Source: a virus (taxonomy: Duplodnaviria; Caudoviricetes). From it: a stretch of DNA of 64,000 bases. Each line of letters starts with the position of its first letter. Within the stretch, counting starts at the first letter, position 1. The notes beneath the pieces were generated by a model, which worked only from the letters and a program-made list of their open reading frames with translations, made no database searches and was not told where the DNA came from. Positions 54,006 to 64,000 of this stretch are shown piece by piece. The stretch is from positions 1 through 64,000 of IMG/VR virus record IMGVR_UViG_3300037067_026010, one strand, 5' to 3'. The translations under genes and the position numbers were made by a program.

Positions 54006-57000
54006 CTACCAGCCCTTCGTAGCACCCGTCCGTCCGAACTCGGTACCGGCGGCTAACGCCGGTACATAACTGGTGCCGCTGGTGTCAGATACATCCCCAC
54101 GGGCCACACCCTTGAGCAGGCTTTTTTTCTGATCGCCAGCCAAGAACCTCGTCATCCAGTCCGGGTCTTGGGCGGCGTTGGCCACTCCACGGATCATTTC
54201 CGGGGCGAAGGGCGGCGGATCTCTGTGGGCAAATATGCGTGTAACGCCGTACCGCTCCATAGCCGGCAACATGGACGGCTGCACCTTGGTGCCTATCGTA
54301 TGCTGGAGCACCGGTCGTTCCAAATAGTAGCCGACGGCTTGTTTCGGCGGTGCGATGATGTGACCCGGCCGCGGCATCCATTCTCGCTCGAGTGTCTGGT
54401 ACGGCACGACGTCGTCCGGCGCCCAATGCCCGTATTCCTCGGCAAGCCGCACATGATTGATCAAACCGCGCGCCAGCAACTCGATGTTCCTTCGGTGCGC
54501 CGAGACACCGGAGTCCGCCAACATTTTACGAAAGGCATCCACAAAATACCGACGGCCTTCGCCGATGCCCTTGTGTTTGACTATTTCCGCCGGATTGGGC
54601 GTACCGCCGCTCAGGATATCGCCGGCTTCCGCGTAGTCCCCGACTTTGACCTGCAACTTGCGATCGGCCGGCACGTAATGGTCCTCGCCCTCGATCGTGA
54701 CGTACGAGCCACCGGCAGGTGCTTCGCGTATATGGTTGATGCGACCATCCTTTTGTGCATGGGTGGCGCCGCCGGGAAAGTGTTTGGGAACCTGAATCAG
54801 GGCGTCAATGCCTTTAAAACCGGCGATAGCTCCGGCTTCGGCTGCACCGGCTACTCCCCCGGTGTGCTTCGAGGAGTTGGAGACGATTAGGCCATTTGCC
54901 AGAACAAAGAGATGCGAAGCATGATCCACTTCGAGATCATAAGTCTGCTGTAAACCGACCGGTGCCATTTCTTCACGCAGTAACTTGTAATAAGCGTGTG
55001 GCCGGATTACTTGCCAATTAGCAAGTTTCTCGGCCAAAACACGCTGCTTAACCCCGTAAAGGGGAATGGCTGCGGCACAACGGCGGATGCCGTCTTCGTG
55101 GGTAATGTCAATTTGATAAAGCGTACGTTTTCGGCCACTGTTATTATGGTACGGCCCGGTAGCGTATACCCCGAAACGCCAAGCTAGCAATTCCCTTACT
55201 TTGCGTGCCATAGCTAGTGACGTAGACGCAAAACCAAGATAGGGCTTGGCTCTGTCCGCATAACAATCCGGGGTGAAAACCGAGCCATCTGTGACCATGA
55301 GCCCGCCCAACAGGGCTGCAATAGATCGATTGTTCCAGCTGTCGATGGCTGCCGGCAATTCTTTTTCGTGAGCATATTTACCAAGCATCTCGTGGTCATG
55401 CAACCAGCGTCGAATTGGGTTAAGATAACCTTCCTTTATGCGTCCCTGACTATCCCGCGGTGCCGACGCCTGCACGAGCTGGCTTACCCGATAATACCCC
55501 GTATGCCCGGCTAAGCGTGTTAATTTCAAATTCAAAGGGGACAATTCTGCTTTCAAATCTTCAATCAGACTTGGATCATAACAACTGAAATTGACGCCAT
55601 TCGCGGCGTCCGTGTAACAACCGTCTCCAAGTACTAATCCCACTAGGAGAGCCATTGGCTCATCAACGTAACGTGCATCGTCGTCAAAAGCAATGGGCAA
55701 TACGGCGCGCAGTCGCCGCGTACGCAGCCCGACAGGGTATTGCATCGGTACGCCGTTAAAAACGTCCGCCTTGCAATTGGACGTGTAACGGATACCGAGG
55801 ATTTTGTGCTCCACCGTAGAGACCAGTGTTACACCGCTGTGGTCTCGCCTGAAGGGGTACCGGAAAAATGTACGGTAGCATGACCGCAAGCCGTTGTCGA
55901 AACAGCGTAGTACCTGTACCGGGAAGGTACGCCCGGTTTCATCCGCACCCAAAATCCAATCACCTGGGCGGACACGCTCGATCGCTTTTGTTGTCCAATC
56001 CGCCATGCGCACCAGTGTGCCCTGCGCCAGACAGATTTGCGCCTGTGTGATCGGCGCCGACAGTGCATGCGCCGCCGCCACGCCAATGAAGTCGCCTGTA
56101 GGCGGTATGCCGCCTCGCTCGCGCCTTCCGGCGTCACGTGCATAGACACCGCCGTCGGATGGGCCGCCCACCGTCGTACTGCGCACCAGGATTTCGTCGA
56201 CGCCTTTATTTTTTAGATCTCGGAGTATTTTCGGAGTGAGTTCCGTATTGCGGTTGTAGCCGCCGACGGCATGCGCCAAAAGCGCCCCGGCATTGTCCGG
56301 GTCGTCCGTGGCTATGGGCATTCCGCGCGGCATGGCCTCGTCGTAGGGCCGGTCGTCGTCGAGAGCGGAGACGAGTAGTCGGTGATTTGCCGCCACGAGC
56401 TGTTTCCCGAGGAAACCGGCTTTTGCGGTGGAAGCCTTCAAGTCAAGGATCCCCTTTCGTGCCCCGTAAGCTCCTGCAAAGTACTCGACGGGCGATAAAC
56501 CCTGGCTGTAACTGCGCGTGACGGGGACGGGCAACACGTTGCCGCGATGGTCCGTATACAGCAAGTCCGCCCCCACCAGGCTCGAAAGAAACTGTTCCCC
56601 CTGCTTGCTGCGGGCTCCACTGGCCACTTGGCGCCACAACGGGTTGTCCGTCTCAGCCAGCTCTTTGAGCAGCCTGGGCAGCATCTTGTTCTTCGCCATG
56701 CCTGCCGCGTGGATAACTCTGTCGTTCCGTTCGCTTTCCGACAGTTTGGGGTCCGAGAGGATGCGCTGGATTTCCGAACGCAGCTCCAGCTGCATTTGCT
56801 TGGCTGCCAGGGTGCTCTGCAGATGCTTGAGGCCGAAAGAGTAGCCGCCGGTGCTGTAGGCCGCATCCCGGCCTACGTCCGACAGCTTTTTCGAGACTTC
56901 GCGATATTTGTCCGGATGCTTTTCCGCTACGACCTGCAGCAACTTCTTCTGCATCTTGCCGTCGAGTACGCGGTCGTAGTCGCGCATATCCTCCGGCAAG

Positions 57001-57041
57001 GCTTCGTTGACGAGCAGTTGTCCGACGGTGGTTTTGAGCAT
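54006..57041 (-). CDS. rpoC: DNA-directed RNA polymerase beta' subunit, C-terminal part (intein-containing)
   Basis: TTVGQLLVN; VASGARSK; PVPVTRSYSQGLSPVEYFAGAYGARKG...TAKAGFLGKQLV (bridge helix); IGVAAAHALSAPITQ...KHTGG (trigger loop); HRRNIELLAR. Confidence 0.9.
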   Translation of the reverse strand: MLKTTVGQLLVNEALPEDMRDYDRVLDGKMQKKLLQVVAEKHPDKYREVSKKLSDVGRDAAYSTGGYSFGLKHLQSTLAAKQMQLELRSEIQRILSDPKLSESERNDRVIHAAGMAKNKMLPRLLKELAETDNPLWRQVASGARSKQGEQFLSSLVGADLLYTDHRGNVLPVPVTRSYSQGLSPVEYFAGAYGARKGILDLKASTAKAGFLGKQLVAANHRLLVSALDDDRPYDEAMPRGMPIATDDPDNAGALLAHAVGGYNRNTELTPKILRDLKNKGVDEILVRSTTVGGPSDGGVYARDAGRRERGGIPPTGDFIGVAAAHALSAPITQAQICLAQGTLVRMADWTTKAIERVRPGDWILGADETGRTFPVQVLRCFDNGLRSCYRTFFRYPFRRDHSGVTLVSTVEHKILGIRYTSNCKADVFNGVPMQYPVGLRTRRLRAVLPIAFDDDARYVDEPMALLVGLVLGDGCYTDAANGVNFSCYDPSLIEDLKAELSPLNLKLTRLAGHTGYYRVSQLVQASAPRDSQGRIKEGYLNPIRRWLHDHEMLGKYAHEKELPAAIDSWNNRSIAALLGGLMVTDGSVFTPDCYADRAKPYLGFASTSLAMARKVRELLAWRFGVYATGPYHNNSGRKRTLYQIDITHEDGIRRCAAAIPLYGVKQRVLAEKLANWQVIRPHAYYKLLREEMAPVGLQQTYDLEVDHASHLFVLANGLIVSNSSKHTGGVAGAAEAGAIAGFKGIDALIQVPKHFPGGATHAQKDGRINHIREAPAGGSYVTIEGEDHYVPADRKLQVKVGDYAEAGDILSGGTPNPAEIVKHKGIGEGRRYFVDAFRKMLADSGVSAHRRNIELLARGLINHVRLAEEYGHWAPDDVVPYQTLEREWMPRPGHIIAPPKQAVGYYLERPVLQHTIGTKVQPSMLPAMERYGVTRIFAHRDPPPFAPEMIRGVANAAQDPDWMTRFLAGDQKKSLLKGVARGDVSDTSGTSYVPALAAGTEFGRTGATKGW
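54876..56033 (-). mobile_element. intein with LAGLIDADG endonuclease (386 aa) in the beta' trigger loop
   Basis: QAQI|CLAQGTLVRMAD...STVEHKI...LVGLVLGDG...LGGLMVTDG...TYDLEVD..HLFVLANGLIVSN|SSKHTGG. Confidence 0.92.
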
Positions 57042-57373: not shown

Positions 57374-58096
57374 TTAACCTGCCGCCCTCGTACGGCTGCG
57401 CATTAACGCCGCCAAAGCCGCCGCCCCCGTCGTCGGCGACGGTATCTCGGCCTCCGTCCTATCGATGGGACGACCGACGTAGGCCACCTTTGCTGTGTCC
57501 TGCTGCGCCAACTCGGGGCTGGCCCCCTGCATCGGTTCGATCGCCTGGATGGCGCTTTGCCCTGCGCCTTGTCCCGGGCTTTGTCCCTGGCTCTGCCCCT
57601 GGCCTTGTGCCATCGGATCGTTTGGTCCGCCCGGCAGTGCGGATTCCACCGGCGGAGGCCCGAATTGCCCGGGCGGCATGACCAGGGCCTCCGGCGGCAT
57701 CTGAATTTGCAGTGAATTCATGATAGCCGTCAGCATTTGCTGCAGATTGTACATGCGGTAGTCGAGCTGCGTCATCATCTCTTCGGGCTTGCGCTTTACC
57801 GGAGCAGGAGCTGCGGCTTGTCCCGGCATTTGTCCCGGCATTTGTCCCGGCATTGGCGGAGGCATTCCCATCATAGCCGTCGGATCCATGCCCGGCATCG
57901 GAGCTGCCGGCGGCGGTGCGCCAGGCATTCCCGGAGCACCCCCCGCGCCTGCCATCGCTGCAGGGTCCTGTTGCATCGCCGCGGGGTCCTGCGGCATCGC
58001 CGCGCCGGCGCCCTCGGGCGGCTGAAAGGCCTCCTTGGTTTGTTGCTGCCAGACGCGTTCTCTGGCCAAAGCGAGCAGTATGGGGTTGACGCTCAT
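57374..58096 (-). CDS. Pro/Met/Gln/Gly-rich low-complexity protein (240 aa) between RNAP genes
   Basis: AGGAG SD; MPGQ x3 (12-bp tandem repeat), QGQGQSQGQ; central helix; KEA and KVA near the termini. Confidence 0.75.
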   Translation of the reverse strand: MSVNPILLALARERVWQQQTKEAFQPPEGAGAAMPQDPAAMQQDPAAMAGAGGAPGMPGAPPPAAPMPGMDPTAMMGMPPPMPGQMPGQMPGQAAAPAPVKRKPEEMMTQLDYRMYNLQQMLTAIMNSLQIQMPPEALVMPPGQFGPPPVESALPGGPNDPMAQGQGQSQGQSPGQGAGQSAIQAIEPMQGASPELAQQDTAKVAYVGRPIDRTEAEIPSPTTGAAALAALMRSRTRAAG

Positions 58097-58115
58097 GGTT
58101 TACTCCTGCGATTCG

Positions 58116-61100
58116 CTAATTGTGAACGACGACCTGGCGGTCTACGTTGATTTTTCCTTGACGATAAGCACGTACAGCGTCCGCTACTGTAGCAAAGTGT
58201 ACCGGTTTATTCTTTTTATCGATAGCCCCAGATGCCTCGTAAAGGCCTGCCGTGTATTCTTTACCGGGCGTTTGGTGCACCTGGAACGTCGACGGCGAGA
58301 AGAGATTGGAAGACGGCAGCATTTTCTCCAGGGCCTCCTGGGCCGCTTCGTCGGTGCCGGGTACGTGAAATTGCATCGTATTGCTTAGGAATACGCCGTC
58401 TACATCCATAAATGTTTCCGGTCCGGGCACGGTTAAATCGTATCCCGTCACGCATTGCTCGCCGACTTCGACGTTCGCGACCTGCTCCCATGTAATATCG
58501 GTGTTTCCAACGATATTTTGCCATAGCTCCCACTCTGGATGCATCGCAGCCTTGGTTACATCAACAAACTTGGTTATTCGTTCAGCGGATTGTCGTGTAA
58601 CGTAACCACTATGCCGCGCTCGCATAAATGCCATATAGATAGCTTCTTGCCCAGCCGGCCACTTTTTGTGATTTTTCGGCGTATACATAAGGCCTGTCAG
58701 CCACTTGGCTAATTCAAAGCTAACCGGAATAAGGTCATGGCGAACAGCGGCGGGCGTTGCCTCCACAACAATCGAACGCAGCTTCTGTAATTTGTCCGTA
58801 TGTACCATCACTGCACCGCCCCACTTCGCAATATCACCGTTGGCAAAAGATAATTGCCAAAAAGGCAGGCCTGCCGGCGTGTTGCTCGGCGTAATCCGGC
58901 CACGTATGCCTAAAGAAGCAGCCAACAGCCGCACTTCTTGCACAAGGCGCAGACTGCGACTGGAATAGCCTGACATCAGCTGCGGTTTTTTGCCCTTTGC
59001 CCTGGCTATTGAAATCGACCCATCCGTATCCATACAACCGGCGAATAATCCCATACGTGCCGCTCGCGGCGCTGCTAAGAACCAGCCCGGAAGATGCTTC
59101 GCCTCGGCAGTATGCCCGATCATAGGCGCCAATAGCCGCGCCAAGGTCACGCTATTGTAGGTGATCCGCTGGCTGTGACCATACGACGCGGTACTTATGA
59201 TATGTACGCCTTTTGGCCCGTCGCCTGCAAACAACGATGCAATAATCCGGGCAATTTTCTCCTGAACTTCACCGCTGATGCCTGCTAAACTGAAATCGCG
59301 GATAACTCCTCTCAAGCGTGTTGTCCACCCGTCGCCTACTGCACAACCGCACAAATAGCCAAAATCCTCGTCTAAGGCAATTTGTGGCTTGAGCCATAGC
59401 GGCTGTACCGTGTCTGGCAGCGGTGGCCGCACAATTTGCAATTCCGCGTGTTCCAGCGAAGCCAGATGGGCCGCGCGCGGCACCATAAATTTGCGGGACA
59501 GTGCGTCCTGCGGACGCGCTCGTGTAAGTGCCAGCGTGCCACAGGCTACACCATAAACCGCCCGAGGGTCGTCATCCGTGAAAATCTGGCGACCGGACTG
59601 TAACGTAACTGCGATCATCGGGCAATCGCGATGCACGGACCACACCGTCGGATGCCGCCAGACGGCTGCGCCAGTCACCGGGCAATGCGCCAGTACCTCC
59701 ACATCCTCCGGCACAGCGAACCAATCGATCGGACCATGTTGCCCGCGTGTTCGGTGCAGCAATTCGCCGTGTGGGAAATCTTGCAAATGCGTAAGAAATA
59801 CGTCGTAGCCGCGGCAATGCGGCAGCGCAACTTTAAAGCGTGCAGACATTTTGTGCTCCTGTAAAAATGTGGACGATTTCGTACTAGTCCGCATTATAAC
59901 ATCGAGCTTACTTTTTCTGCAACGCCAAAATACATGGGAAAATTGGCTATCGCCATCGAAGTCGGCGCTTAGACCACCGATAATCAACGGGCTAATCCTC
60001 AACACGTCCCCCTTTGCCAACTGCGGCTTTGCCGCCATCAGTCCAAAGCGGTGGAGCGTGGGTGCCCGGTTGATGATAACCGGCCGGCTTTCCATCTCTT
60101 CGAGGAGCGCCTTCCGAGCGGTCGGTGATCGATCTTCAACGAGGGCATTTGCCCGGAGCGTGGGGACGTTATTGCGCCGGAGATTGCGGATGACGAAGGG
60201 CTTATAGATTTCCCAGGCTTTGTCCTCGGGGAGACCCACCGTGTCCATATCCAGTTCAGGATCCGGCACAATAACCGCCCGGCCGACCAGGTCGACGCTT
60301 CCCCCGAGCAGCCTACGTTGCACCGACCCGAATTTTGGGGAGTGGCTAAAGACTTCGCGCAGGATGCCCCGGACATTGCGCTCTCGATTCTTGGGATGGA
60401 TGGGGTCGCCGAGGCCGACGACGCCCTTGAATGCGTTGTAGACATTTTGATGCTCCTCGCCGACGTTGTCGCCTAACTGCTCCTGTGCCTGTTTAAGCAA
60501 CTGCACGGAGTCGAACAATTCCTTATAAAGTAGATTTGCGTCATCCACCAAAGGCAGTTTCTTGGCACCGAGCGTGCTTACCGGCCGGAAGAACGGCGGA
60601 AGCACGGGAACCTTATCGAGCATCCATTCCCGCGGGTGAAGCTGCAGTTCCTGAGCACTTTTGAGATAGCCCAGCCGGCGCACCGCGATATCGCGCCGAG
60701 ACTTTTTGGCGCTGCGGATATCTTCGCGGCAACGCTCGATTTCCTTATCCACATTGATGTTGGCGAGCGCCGTGCCGATCGCTTGCGGCCCGGTCGTGCC
60801 GTTCAGTTGCAGCTTGTTCCCGATAATGTCTTGAAACTGCTGCTCCGTAAGCCCCAGCATCCGTCGGATGGGATCCTCCATGGCCGGGTTTGGGACGGGG
60901 TAGGGTAACGCAATATAAGCCCAATTCCTGCCGCCGTGTCCCCCTGTAGTAGCAGGGTCGAAGAGTCCTCCCGGAACCGGGCTGAGATCTTTCCAGTCCA
61001 CGGTTTCCAGCGTCAAGCCGCCGCGGCCGTCCGGAGTTCCCTTGATCTCGCGGTCGCCGGCAAGCTGCTCGACGTCGCGAGAGGTCAGCGCCATGATCTG

Positions 61101-64000
61101 CGTACGTTCGTTCGTTCGCACCGGGTGAATGCCGGAGGCGCGCAATTGGTTGATGAATTTTTCGTAGGCGACCGGCACGCGCGGCGTCGCCGGCTTGTGC
61201 CCCTGCATGTATTGTGCCCAGTAATCGGGATTGGCCTGGCCGCGCAGCAATTTCATGTCGCGAAGCACTTGCGTGCTGCCGTACGAAAGAAGGGCGCCTG
61301 ATTCCAATAACCCAAGCCGTTTGGAATTTGCAACCAGCGCCTGTCCGGCTATGTAAGTATGCGTATCCGCCACGGTAATATCGTATACATTCACTTCCGT
61401 TATTCCTGCTTTGTCGTGACGGTAAGGCCGGATACTCGCAATGCGCATAGGCACCAGGCCTAAACGGCTTACGCTGTCAATAGGCCGGGGCAACAAGTTA
61501 TGCTGCGCGTCCGCCACAAATCGTCGCAGGAAGGGTTTGGAGCCAGGAATAGCTGCGGCAGGCACCCATTGGGCGACAATTTCCGCCAATTTTCGACAGG
61601 CGTCCGCAGAGAGGCAAATATTTTTATCCTGCCCTAATGTGCATGTCGTGGCGTAGCGGGTATTGAGCCAATCCAATAGCAACTGACACGAGACATTGTC
61701 AAAGCCCATCGTACAAAGCTTACCCGTCAGGTGTACTCGACCTTTCTTCTTTGCTCGATTGGTAATAGACCCGTCATCCAATACCCAGGCGGCAACGCTT
61801 AAATCCGATAGTTGCTGTAACCATTCGACTGTTACGCGCTTTATATGGTTATCATCATAACAGGTCCGCTGTAGTGTGGCACATACATGATCTTCGTTAA
61901 TCCACAACACCCGACTATGATGCCGTTTACGTTTACCGCGCCCGTCGCCATGCACCGAGTCACAACTGCCTGGGCAGAGACCTCCCAGAATTTTACGTTT
62001 CCATTGCAAATACGCGCTTTGTTTTATCGAATGTTCGCAGCTGACCGCGTTGTTGTCTACCGTAGCGTCCCCCAACATAGTCCCATACAAAAAGGCCCAT
62101 TGCTGTGCCGTAGGTAACAGGCCCCACGTGATCAGCTGATCGTTTTGCCGTAACTCGCTCACCGGAATACGCCCGCGGGTATACTCAAAAATTTCATGGT
62201 TCCGCGTGGCATACAGGCAAGATCGTGTTCTATTTACGCGTGAGGTCTTTTCGCAAGGTCCACCGATCGTTTCAATTGTCACGATGTCGTCGATGTTTGC
62301 CCGATAAATAAACCAATCAATTACCGGGCGGTAGACCCACTCCTGTAACTGCGGCGAAAAGGTACGGACTTGTACGCCCAGTTGTTTTTCACAAATAGCG
62401 GCAATATCCATGCTGCCGCGTATCGTGACAATCTGCTGTTTAGCCGTAAAACAGCCTGCAGCGCCACCTTTCGCCGGCGCCATGTCCATCGTGTAAGCGC
62501 CTAGTCCACGACCTTGCAGTTTGTGTTCGGCTTGATGGTGCAGTTTCATCATGAAGATGTTTCCGGCCAGCACGCCGCTGATCTTGCGATCGGTCGTCGG
62601 GTCGGTGATGTCTTCGAGATCGCTTATGCCGTGTTTGCGGCATTCTTCCAATGCCCACGCCGCCAGATCCTTTTGGTCGTCGAAGTCGGGAACCTTGTAC
62701 GGTTTCCCCGTTTTTTCGGCGATTTTACCGAGCGCAACTTCGATAACCTGCGCCGGATTGGTTCTCGACAATATGCTCAGGGGATCCATGAGCACCTCGA
62801 AGGGCCGGCCGTCGGCGCCGTGCGGCATTTCGCCGTCGGGAATGATGGCGGACACGACCATCTTATTGCCGTGCCGGCCCGCCAGCTTGTCCCCCACCTG
62901 CATCTGCGCCGTGCTCTTGACGATGACGTTGATTCCTTTGGGCGATACGTCCACGTCGGTCACCAAACCCGGATTATGGTGCTCCCACAATATAGATTCA
63001 TCAATGGGCGTCAGTTTGCGATGCACCTGCTTGGCAGTCGCAGCGCGTTTGCGCGCCACGAGGACCAGCGGCTCCCCTGGTTGCACTGTCGTCCCGGGTT
63101 TGATGACGCCGCGTTCGTCGAAATTCGCCAGGATCTTGCGATCGAATTTGCCGGGAAACATGCTCCGAAAATAGGACTTGTCGGTGCGGACCGTGCTGTC
63201 GTCCAGGTCGAGACCGTGCTGATACATATGCTCGGATACCAGCCGCTTCGCCGCGCTCTCGGAGATAACGGTAGCGTCCTCGTGGTTCAAACCGCGGAAA
63301 GGAATGTACGCCGCGCGCAGATTCCGCCCGATGGCCATCGTCCCCTGTGCATCCGTATAATTCGACTTGGCCAGGAGTTGACCTGGTTGTACGACATCTC
63401 CGGGGCGCACGGCCGGAGTCTGGTGCCAGTACGTTTTGCGATTTGACGGGAAGTGGTTGTACAGCTCGTGCGTTTCCGTGTTGCCGTCCGCACGGCGGAC
63501 CACAATGCCGTCCGGCGTGACGCTTTCCACCTTTCCCGGCTTGTCCGCGTACAAAGCCCCCATGTATCGCGAATACTCCTCTTCGTACGAGCGATCGGGC
63601 CGTTCCGGCATGGCATTCTGCACGAGTGGTGCCTCGGGATCGATCAATGGGAGCGCTTGGGCGATCATGCGTGAAGACATTATTGCCCTCTGGCCTTTTA
63701 CTAGACTCTTGAGGGGCACGAGGTTGCCCAGCGGGCTGAAGGCATGCTCCATGTACGGCAATTCAAATGCAACTTCCGCGCGCGGCACATTTTTGATTTT
63801 GCCGTTGACGACTGCAGCGACGTACGGGCTATTGCGCCGGAGTTCGTTCGGAAAAGCTACGGCTTGGCCTACCAGGTCCTGCGGGGTTTTATAGACGGTT
63901 CGGCCTTGCATGTCCTGCAATTGCGCGTAGAGCTTGCCGTTCGGGCCTTTCCTGGTATGCACCGCCATGCGCAAGTCGATTCCCGACTTGGTCGACTCCG
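58116..64000 (-). CDS. rpoBC: DNA-directed RNA polymerase beta / beta'(N-terminal half) fusion with two inteins; 5' end beyond the window
   Basis: Beta motifs: ESTKSGIDLR, RAIMSSRMIAQALPL, GRNLRAAY.PF.G.NHEDA.VISE, GDKLAGRHGNK.VV, SRTNPAQ, MMKLHH, KRLGLLE. Beta' motifs: GGLFDP, VPVLPP..RP, GRAVI, NRAPTLHR, ADFDGD|T, MLPS.NL. Frame is open to the window edge. Confidence 0.93.
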   Translation of the reverse strand, partial: ESTKSGIDLRMAVHTRKGPNGKLYAQLQDMQGRTVYKTPQDLVGQAVAFPNELRRNSPYVAAVVNGKIKNVPRAEVAFELPYMEHAFSPLGNLVPLKSLVKGQRAIMSSRMIAQALPLIDPEAPLVQNAMPERPDRSYEEEYSRYMGALYADKPGKVESVTPDGIVVRRADGNTETHELYNHFPSNRKTYWHQTPAVRPGDVVQPGQLLAKSNYTDAQGTMAIGRNLRAAYIPFRGLNHEDATVISESAAKRLVSEHMYQHGLDLDDSTVRTDKSYFRSMFPGKFDRKILANFDERGVIKPGTTVQPGEPLVLVARKRAATAKQVHRKLTPIDESILWEHHNPGLVTDVDVSPKGINVIVKSTAQMQVGDKLAGRHGNKMVVSAIIPDGEMPHGADGRPFEVLMDPLSILSRTNPAQVIEVALGKIAEKTGKPYKVPDFDDQKDLAAWALEECRKHGISDLEDITDPTTDRKISGVLAGNIFMMKLHHQAEHKLQGRGLGAYTMDMAPAKGGAAGCFTAKQQIVTIRGSMDIAAICEKQLGVQVRTFSPQLQEWVYRPVIDWFIYRANIDDIVTIETIGGPCEKTSRVNRTRSCLYATRNHEIFEYTRGRIPVSELRQNDQLITWGLLPTAQQWAFLYGTMLGDATVDNNAVSCEHSIKQSAYLQWKRKILGGLCPGSCDSVHGDGRGKRKRHHSRVLWINEDHVCATLQRTCYDDNHIKRVTVEWLQQLSDLSVAAWVLDDGSITNRAKKKGRVHLTGKLCTMGFDNVSCQLLLDWLNTRYATTCTLGQDKNICLSADACRKLAEIVAQWVPAAAIPGSKPFLRRFVADAQHNLLPRPIDSVSRLGLVPMRIASIRPYRHDKAGITEVNVYDITVADTHTYIAGQALVANSKRLGLLESGALLSYGSTQVLRDMKLLRGQANPDYWAQYMQGHKPATPRVPVAYEKFINQLRASGIHPVRTNERTQIMALTSRDVEQLAGDREIKGTPDGRGGLTLETVDWKDLSPVPGGLFDPATTGGHGGRNWAYIALPYPVPNPAMEDPIRRMLGLTEQQFQDIIGNKLQLNGTTGPQAIGTALANINVDKEIERCREDIRSAKKSRRDIAVRRLGYLKSAQELQLHPREWMLDKVPVLPPFFRPVSTLGAKKLPLVDDANLLYKELFDSVQLLKQAQEQLGDNVGEEHQNVYNAFKGVVGLGDPIHPKNRERNVRGILREVFSHSPKFGSVQRRLLGGSVDLVGRAVIVPDPELDMDTVGLPEDKAWEIYKPFVIRNLRRNNVPTLRANALVEDRSPTARKALLEEMESRPVIINRAPTLHRFGLMAAKPQLAKGDVLRISPLIIGGLSADFDGDSQFSHVFWRCRKSKLDVIMRTSTKSSTFLQEHKMSARFKVALPHCRGYDVFLTHLQDFPHGELLHRTRGQHGPIDWFAVPEDVEVLAHCPVTGAAVWRHPTVWSVHRDCPMIAVTLQSGRQIFTDDDPRAVYGVACGTLALTRARPQDALSRKFMVPRAAHLASLEHAELQIVRPPLPDTVQPLWLKPQIALDEDFGYLCGCAVGDGWTTRLRGVIRDFSLAGISGEVQEKIARIIASLFAGDGPKGVHIISTASYGHSQRITYNSVTLARLLAPMIGHTAEAKHLPGWFLAAPRAARMGLFAGCMDTDGSISIARAKGKKPQLMSGYSSRSLRLVQEVRLLAASLGIRGRITPSNTPAGLPFWQLSFANGDIAKWGGAVMVHTDKLQKLRSIVVEATPAAVRHDLIPVSFELAKWLTGLMYTPKNHKKWPAGQEAIYMAFMRARHSGYVTRQSAERITKFVDVTKAAMHPEWELWQNIVGNTDITWEQVANVEVGEQCVTGYDLTVPGPETFMDVDGVFLSNTMQFHVPGTDEAAQEALEKMLPSSNLFSPSTFQVHQTPGKEYTAGLYEASGAIDKKNKPVHFATVADAVRAYRQGKINVDRQVVVHN
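58380..59948 (-). mobile_element. intein with LAGLIDADG endonuclease (523 aa) directly after the catalytic DFDGD
   Basis: SADFDGD|SQFSH...GYLCGCAVGDG...FAGCMDTDGS...TGYDLTVPGPETFMDVDGVFLSN|TMQFHVP. Confidence 0.88.
59847..59922 (-). promoter_or_regulatory. sigma70-like promoter, SD and in-frame ATG inside the intein coding sequence
   Basis: TTGCAG(59917-22)-N18-TATAAT(59893-98) with a TG extension; AGGAG(59856-60)-6 nt-ATG(59847-49) in frame. Confidence 0.55.
61326..62453 (-). mobile_element. intein with LAGLIDADG endonuclease (376 aa) in the beta C-terminal conserved region
   Basis: AKGGAAG|CFTAKQQIVT...YATRNHEIF...LYGTMLGDA...AWVLDDGS...VYDITVADTHTYIAGQALVAN|SKRLG. Confidence 0.92.

Follow-up and report, generated by a model that had tools for sequence, protein, structure and literature searches.

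Intein homing endonucleases are, to our knowledge, taken to be made only within the host protein and to be freed from it by splicing. The locus described here raises the question whether such a nuclease may also possess a gene start of its own, written into the coding sequence of its intein. The window, by which we mean the whole stretch of 64,000 nucleotides (nt) that was analysed, is the first 64 kilobases (kb) of a viral genome (IMG/VR record IMGVR_UViG_3300037067_026010), and it includes a fused gene for the beta subunit and the N-terminal half of the beta-prime subunit of RNA polymerase (RNAP). One of the two inteins inside this gene, here called intein 2, directly follows the catalytic motif DFDGD of beta-prime. 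Judged from the sequence, intein 2 probably contains a selected internal gene start, which runs in frame through a variable loop and would let a nuclease-bearing protein of 577 amino acids be made without the precursor of 2375 amino acids.

Signals embedded in the N-terminal loop of intein 2

The preliminary description of this stretch had listed a promoter-like pair, TTGCAG and TATAAT separated by 18 nt and with an extended -10 TG, followed by AGGAG and, 6 nt further on, an in-frame ATG. All of these elements are present on the minus strand (table 1), and the intein does begin with DNA rich in adenine and thymine (AT-rich), as was stated there: the segment 59850-59949 has a guanine plus cytosine (GC) content of 39%, the lowest of any 100-nt window in the gene, compared with 57% in the genome. 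By its sequence the site qualifies as a candidate promoter of the sigma-70 type, having a -10 hexamer with an extended -10 and a -35-like hexamer at a spacing within the range of 16-18 nt.

The combination is rare in this genome. The pattern TGnTATAAT occurs at four sites on both strands of the 210.6-kb genome (421 kb), and TTGnnn-N16-19-TATAAT at six sites, three of them intergenic; the intein site alone has both patterns, and the three intergenic sites begin with TTGC, as it does. When scored with a sigma-70 weight matrix, the intein site ranks ninth genome-wide, and seven of the top 14 sites are intergenic. The translation signals are similarly uncommon. Among the 1960 codons of the gene that lie in the window, seven in-frame ATG, GTG or TTG codons are preceded by any 4-nt Shine-Dalgarno core, and a 5-nt core at a spacing of 6 nt precedes one in-frame ATG alone, that at 59849. 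The predicted leader is no more folded than its shuffled versions (z = +1.15) and the ribosome-binding site is therefore not expected to be sequestered.

Another promoter-like site, likewise with an extended -10, lies in intein 1 of the same gene on the coding strand (61854-61882, minus). Neither a Shine-Dalgarno core nor an in-frame start codon follows it, and the device is therefore specific to intein 2 within this gene. A programmed frameshift or stop in the loop of intein 2, where the other frames close fast, was considered as well and rejected, there being no slippery heptamer or long run of A in the loop.

Table 1. Positions of intein 2, of its candidate expression signals and of the surrounding gene (window coordinates)
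Feature	Position	Strand	Basis or remark
Fused RNAP beta / beta-prime N-half gene (P0001)	58116..64000, continuing past the window end	minus	open frame and translation; Pfam
Intein 2, 523 amino acids, directly after DFDGD; Ser first, Asn last, then Thr +1	58380..59948	minus	translation
Intein N-terminal strand, first 13 codons	59910..59948	minus	equals the whole N-piece of split relatives L004/L051
AT-rich variable loop, intein codons 14-33, holding the putative expression signals	59850..59909	minus	GC 39-40%, against 55% in the intein body
-35-like hexamer TTGCAG	59922-59917	minus	TTGC beginning common to the genome's intergenic promoter-like sites
Extended -10 TGtTATAAT	TG 59901-59900; TATAAT 59898-59893	minus	18-nt spacer from TTGCAG
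Shine-Dalgarno core AGGAG	59860-59856	minus	6 nt before the ATG
In-frame ATG, Met 1384 of P0001, intein residue 34	59849-59847	minus	aligned with the C-piece gene starts of split relatives
Predicted internal product, 577 amino acids and stop: 490 of intein including the LAGLIDADG nuclease, 87 of C-extein	58116..59849	minus	translation
Block B of the splicing domain, TDDDP in place of TxxH	59565..59579	minus	DDDPR invariant in alignments A1 and A2
LAGLIDADG endonuclease core	58878..59054	minus	PF14528, 1e-06, residues 1649-1707 of P0001
C-extein, 87 amino acids, Thr first, resuming the beta-prime strand after DFDGD	58119..58379	minus	translation

Conservation of the signals in contiguous homologs

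GenBank phages gave no DNA or protein match to the RNAP gene or to intein 2. In metagenomic data the intein belongs to a family of 609 cluster representatives at E<1e-3, of which 213 remain at E<1e-30. The members share one layout: a short strand after DFDGD, an unconserved variable loop, a conserved Met with a small motif, then the splicing domain with an invariant TDDDP, the nuclease and an invariant Ser-Asn-Thr end. The distance from the junction to the Met ranges from 26 to 59 codons across the family. Loci were taken from viral and metagenome contigs, and 54 contiguous ones were kept, no two of which exceed 90% identity over the segment compared. If the signals matter as such, it is the DNA motifs, and not the amino acids, that homologous inteins ought to conserve, as the preliminary description had pointed out, and the start codon, the Shine-Dalgarno core and the promoter-like pair are indeed kept at the nucleotide level, even among homologs that have diverged widely.

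The codon aligned with the ATG is ATG in 45 of these loci, GTG in six, and TTG, GTC and ATA in one each, which makes 52 of 54 start-capable. Where Met is replaced, six of the seven Val codons are GTG and the sole Leu codon is TTG. A Shine-Dalgarno core (GGAG, GAGG or AGGA, 4-10 nt upstream) is present in 37 of the 54 loci. In the first set examined, 18 of 24 loci have it, whereas in-frame codons of these genes in general have one in 7.7% of cases (binomial 8.5e-16). Synonymous resampling of the seven codons upstream, with the codon usage of each gene, gave an expectation of 9.8 loci with a core (P=3.5e-5). The cores lie in different codon phases and are spelled by unrelated pairs of amino acids. 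Varied phases and residues, together with the synonymous excess, point to selection on the DNA and not on the protein only.

Scoring of the promoter-like pair was confined to the loop, beginning with the first codon of the intein and ending 5 nt short of the start codon. In 25 of 54 loci it beats mononucleotide shuffles of its own loop at p<=0.05, where 2.7 would be expected (Fisher 4e-23), and in 34 of 54 it outscores every window of the same size in the intein body. The pair of L081 is near consensus (TTGACA-N16-TATAAT). The end of the -10 lies 17-54 nt before the start codon. Loops of different length have their -35 at different places, from intein codon 3 to codon 29, and all three phases are represented; what fixes the position of the -35 is therefore the start codon and not the protein. 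The loop has a lower GC content than the intein body in 49 of 54 loci (by 10 points on average; Wilcoxon 1.8e-9). Because low GC could also keep the mRNA open around the ribosome-binding site, the claim of a promoter is somewhat weaker than that of a start codon.

These figures bear on the idea that the protein alone is constrained: folding or splicing would require the Met, the acidic and basic residues in front of it and a flexible, AT-rich loop, and the resemblance to expression signals would be mimicry. The motif after the Met is indeed conserved as protein, purine-rich Glu and Arg codons often spell a Shine-Dalgarno core, and AT-rich DNA readily gives -10-like hexamers. We nevertheless regard this idea as very improbable, considering the excess of cores over synonymous expectation, their origin from unrelated residue pairs in shifting phases, the replacement of Met almost only by GTG or TTG, and the movement of the -35 with loop length through all phases. 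Moreover, in an AlphaFold2 model of intein 2 Met 34 falls in the least confident part (residues 31-41; predicted local distance difference test score, pLDDT, about 56 or lower), so the model gives no structural reason for this Met and the region is probably flexible. Relatives that are truly split, which are described below, start translation at the aligned Met. One contiguous metagenome protein of 2378 amino acids, P0144, has an intein of 372 amino acids whose nuclease has lost both LAGLIDADG motifs; the Met is still present there, as are the acidic and basic residues that precede it.

Relatives that are split at the same point

The gene in the window is not itself split: one open frame crosses the junction. 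Several relatives, by contrast, have a stop 13-30 residues after DFDGD, inside the loop (L004/L051, L041, L046 and L022). Beyond this stop they have a promoter-like pair and a ribosome-binding site, and then an ATG at the aligned Met. In L004/L051 the N-gene ends 13 residues past DFDGD with a homologous peptide and a stop; a spacer of 1 kb with one open reading frame (ORF) follows, and then a C-gene that begins at a Met aligned with the window Met. The 158-residue product of the spacer ORF has no Pfam match. The locus in L004 (1850-2960, the same as in L051) and those in L134-L137 lie on AT-rich phage contigs and represent a mini-intein version free of the nuclease. The N-genes of L041, L046 and L022 end after 24-30 residues, the gap is about 50-150 nt and the C-gene begins at the aligned position; these gaps contain a Shine-Dalgarno core, preceded in L041 and L046 by TTGACT or TTGACA and a -10.

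In alignment A1, all nine split C-piece proteins begin at the column of the window Met. At least eight representatives with a full nuclease start there (P0003, P0010, P0051, P0061, P0068, P0093, P0119 and P0141), and the predicted 577-residue product can be aligned over its full length, at 28-48% identity, with proteins encoded by separate genes in relatives. Since split relatives start at the aligned Met, the ATG at 59849 corresponds to a codon that truly serves as a start in them. The preliminary description had named an endonuclease-containing intein body plus the short C-extein as the product of initiation there, and this agrees with the relatives, which make that protein from a separate gene. 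A C-piece start with its own ribosome-binding site, which is a feature of split inteins, is present in the window as AGGAG-N6-ATG. The signals coincide with the natural break point of the family, a context that the preliminary description does not have and that may be a second reason for their existence.

The coexistence of split and contiguous forms, some of which differ by no more than a frame change and about 50 nt, also suggests a different history, in which split halves were re-fused by the loss of stop and spacer and the signals are decaying leftovers with no function. Re-fusion is in fact foreseen in the model of fractured genes (Dassa et al. 2009, PMC2677866). Leftovers free of selection would, however, have decayed, whereas the signals persist in lineages that are 26-47% identical as protein; the preference at synonymous sites, the nearly universal start-capable codon and the occurrence of the core in different frames argue in the same direction. 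A functionless relic is, in our judgement, improbable, though somewhat less so than constraint on the protein alone.

The promoter might also serve chiefly the genes that lie downstream, namely two small genes, the beta-prime C-half (54006-57041) and the head module, all of them on the same strand. It would perhaps be read by a phage polymerase with a sigma factor; the in-frame start would then keep the transcript translated and the nuclease protein would be a by-product. Internal promoters are common inside long phage genes. Such a role as the main one is unlikely, because the intein keeps its signals in phages that have other genes downstream, because they are missing from the other intein of the gene, and because split relatives need the start for the C-piece itself. 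Service to downstream genes is possible alongside an internal gene start for the nuclease, since the two are compatible and not exclusive.

Proposed mechanism and the points that weigh against it

In the mechanism that we propose, a sigma-70-type promoter with a weak -35 and a perfect extended -10 would give rise to an mRNA that begins near 59886, and AGGAG with the ATG would load ribosomes on it. The product would be intein 2 without its first 33 residues, carrying the homing endonuclease and the C-extein and made apart from the RNAP precursor. Presuming that the site is used in vivo, the homing endonuclease would follow an expression schedule of its own, which would most likely aid homing. 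The claim of the preliminary description that the nuclease is expressed independently through an internal start is in part supported: the conserved signals and the split relatives argue for an internal start. Its further suggestions, namely that host RNAP reads the site, that expression is early and that the purpose is homing or interference with competing phages, are possibilities that go beyond these comparisons.

The intein appears tolerant of splitting, and a single stop or frame change in the loop would convert it into a physical split with a short N-piece and a long C-piece. Such an event would leave two expressed halves, and this accounts for the fact that splits of different construction have arisen here again and again. 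On the other hand, the frame of the loop is open in about nine of ten members (54 contiguous and seven split in the set examined). A frame that is kept open through an unconserved, AT-rich loop indicates that the full-length, cis-splicing precursor is selected as well. Both products therefore seem to matter.

Several points weigh against an internal gene start. The -35 TTGCAG agrees with TTGACA at three of six positions only, as opposed to six of six for TATAAT, and the spacer is 18 nt; because of the weak -35, a stricter consensus scan did not list the site. The weight matrix used for the genome-wide ranking is E. coli-like and may not be that of the host. The core is absent from 17 of the 54 contiguous loci, including a whole clade with larger inteins (L039, L042, L043, L108, L110, L111 and L124), and in nine of the 54 the start codon was taken 1-2 columns off the aligned column. 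The AT-rich loop inflates promoter-like scores, for which the shuffles provide a control at the mononucleotide level only, and the homologs are related, so that the P values overstate their independence. Part of the signal could be protein constraint, considering the conservation of the small motif after the Met. Finally, the full-length precursor, whose frame most members keep open, is selected as well.

A broader reading can be put forward tentatively and with considerable doubt: the family as a whole may be facultatively split, every member making a nuclease-bearing C-piece from the internal promoter and start while the open frame offers a second, cis-splicing route. Members would then be pre-adapted to repeated splits with a short N-piece, each by a single stop or frameshift. 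In addition, splicing in the family would proceed without any position-1 nucleophile and would use an Asp triad where block B normally has its His, a chemistry beyond the three described classes.

Comparison with known systems

Four known arrangements resemble the present case in part. As in split inteins, the break comes directly behind the strand with which the splicing domain opens, and relatives are truly split there with N-pieces of 13-30 amino acids; unlike in split inteins, the gene in the window is contiguous with no stop, the start signals lie within coding sequence and the C-piece bears a full LAGLIDADG nuclease. The N-piece of PolB16 OarG, with 15 amino acids, has been called the shortest characterized among atypically split inteins (PMC10189870), and the predicted 13-residue N-piece of L004 would be shorter still.

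Fractured genes, in which the two parts of a split intein are separated by control elements and a free-standing endonuclease gene (Dassa et al. 2009, PMC2677866), share with the present family the phage setting and the control elements at the intein break, as well as, in L004, a spacer with one ORF between the halves. Here, however, the nuclease is an in-frame domain and not a separate gene, and nothing is inserted in the gene of the window.

Intron-encoded and free-standing homing endonuclease genes of phages, of the I-TevI type, have promoters of their own and regulated ribosome-binding sites (cited also in PMC2677866). These signals are found in RNA that does not code for protein, either intronic or intergenic, where a hairpin often hides the ribosome-binding site. 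The likeness is a homing nuclease whose expression signals are apart from those of the interrupted gene. The difference is that the signals of intein 2 are read as codons of the precursor, and that no such hairpin is predicted in its leader.

In the cyanobacterial dnaX intein the nuclease is apparently translated separately, from a Shine-Dalgarno motif and a start codon inside the intein-coding DNA, and a separate start for the nuclease within such DNA is what the two cases have in common. Unlike here, where one frame gives both the precursor and the shorter product, the dnaX nuclease is out of frame and absent from the intein polypeptide; in the present family a promoter-like site is conserved too. 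Taken together, the present case would work like the C-gene start of a split intein joined to the promoter of a phage homing endonuclease, but in frame and inside a contiguous intein. Our literature search, which was incomplete, found no description of an intein that contains a promoter, a ribosome-binding site and a start codon in frame.

Significance

If an internal start is used, a selfish nuclease would be uncoupled from its host gene, which is here a late and very long RNAP gene, and the timing and modelling of phage homing would change. Split inteins with a short N-piece are prized for protein semi-synthesis, and their origin would become concrete and testable: with a C-piece expressed beforehand, a stop anywhere in the loop would be enough for a working split. 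The case also shows how regulatory signals that overlap codons may shape protein sequence.

The intein and its splicing signature

The assignment of the insert as an intein is based on several observations. It is inserted in frame after the catalytic DFDGD, and the host beta-prime strand resumes after Asn-Thr. The AlphaFold2 model, with a pLDDT of 82 and a strand at residues 5-11, has the TliVMA, PI-PfuI and PI-SceI inteins as top Foldseek matches (E 9e-20 to 1e-9), and the LAGLIDADG core gives fold matches to I-DmoI and I-OnuI. In Pfam, LAGLIDADG_3 exceeds its cut-off, and Intein_splicing reaches 27.7 bits, under its cut-off of 35.8. Model, Foldseek and Pfam together show a Hint fold with an inserted LAGLIDADG domain. 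The C-terminal Asn followed by a Thr nucleophile is present and is invariant in alignments A1 and A2.

The remaining splicing positions are divergent. Position 1 is Ser in the window, Phe, Leu, Tyr or Cys in split members, and among 80 contiguous representatives Gln (33), Glu (12), Asp (11), Leu (8), Ala (6), Cys (4), Gly (2), and Ser, Asn, Phe and Lys (one each). Family-wide (P0002-P0151 and L012-L137) there is no conserved nucleophile at this position, while +1 is always Thr and the junction is in every case preceded by the Asp of the catalytic loop. Both the His of the block B TxxH and the penultimate His are lacking in the family, in which TDDDP and a penultimate Ser are invariant (A1 and A2). 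As far as these sequences indicate, position 1, TDDDP and the penultimate Ser do not appear to fit intein classes 1-3 as we know them. Cys 1395 was considered as the true start of the intein and rejected; this Cys is not conserved, and the homologous N-strand and the split relatives place the junction directly after DFDGD. The first residues of the intein (59927-59948) resemble the first residues of the C-extein (58359-58379), and in most relatives the likeness is to the native beta-prime strand after DFDGD. By sequence, the N-strand of the intein looks like a copy of the host strand that it displaces.

Gene and genome context

The genome has 210,569 base pairs, with the GC content given above, and its source is a jumbo phage. 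The long genes of the window are nearly all on the minus strand. The RNAP fusion gene has about 2375 codons in the whole genome and matches RNA_pol_Rpb2_6 (2.8e-49) and RNA_pol_Rpb1_2 (2.4e-17) in Pfam; this very long gene adjoins the virion module. The DNA was matched in two DNA metagenome runs and in no RNA run; one of the two comes from groundwater and is possibly the source, and the other comes from a landfill. Contigs of both runs showed no differences, joints or intein-free allele relative to the window, the landfill run contributing short identical pieces only. These landfill contigs, which come from another study, are of low depth and cover 57900-62600 of the window; the phage or a very close relative is thus not confined to the groundwater sample.

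The best sigma-70-like candidates of the genome cluster outside the window, in intergenic DNA at about 106,000-120,200 (106490-106517, 113391-113418, 113972-114000 and 120076-120105). Most of them begin with TTGC, and the cluster may mark an early region that is read by the host polymerase.

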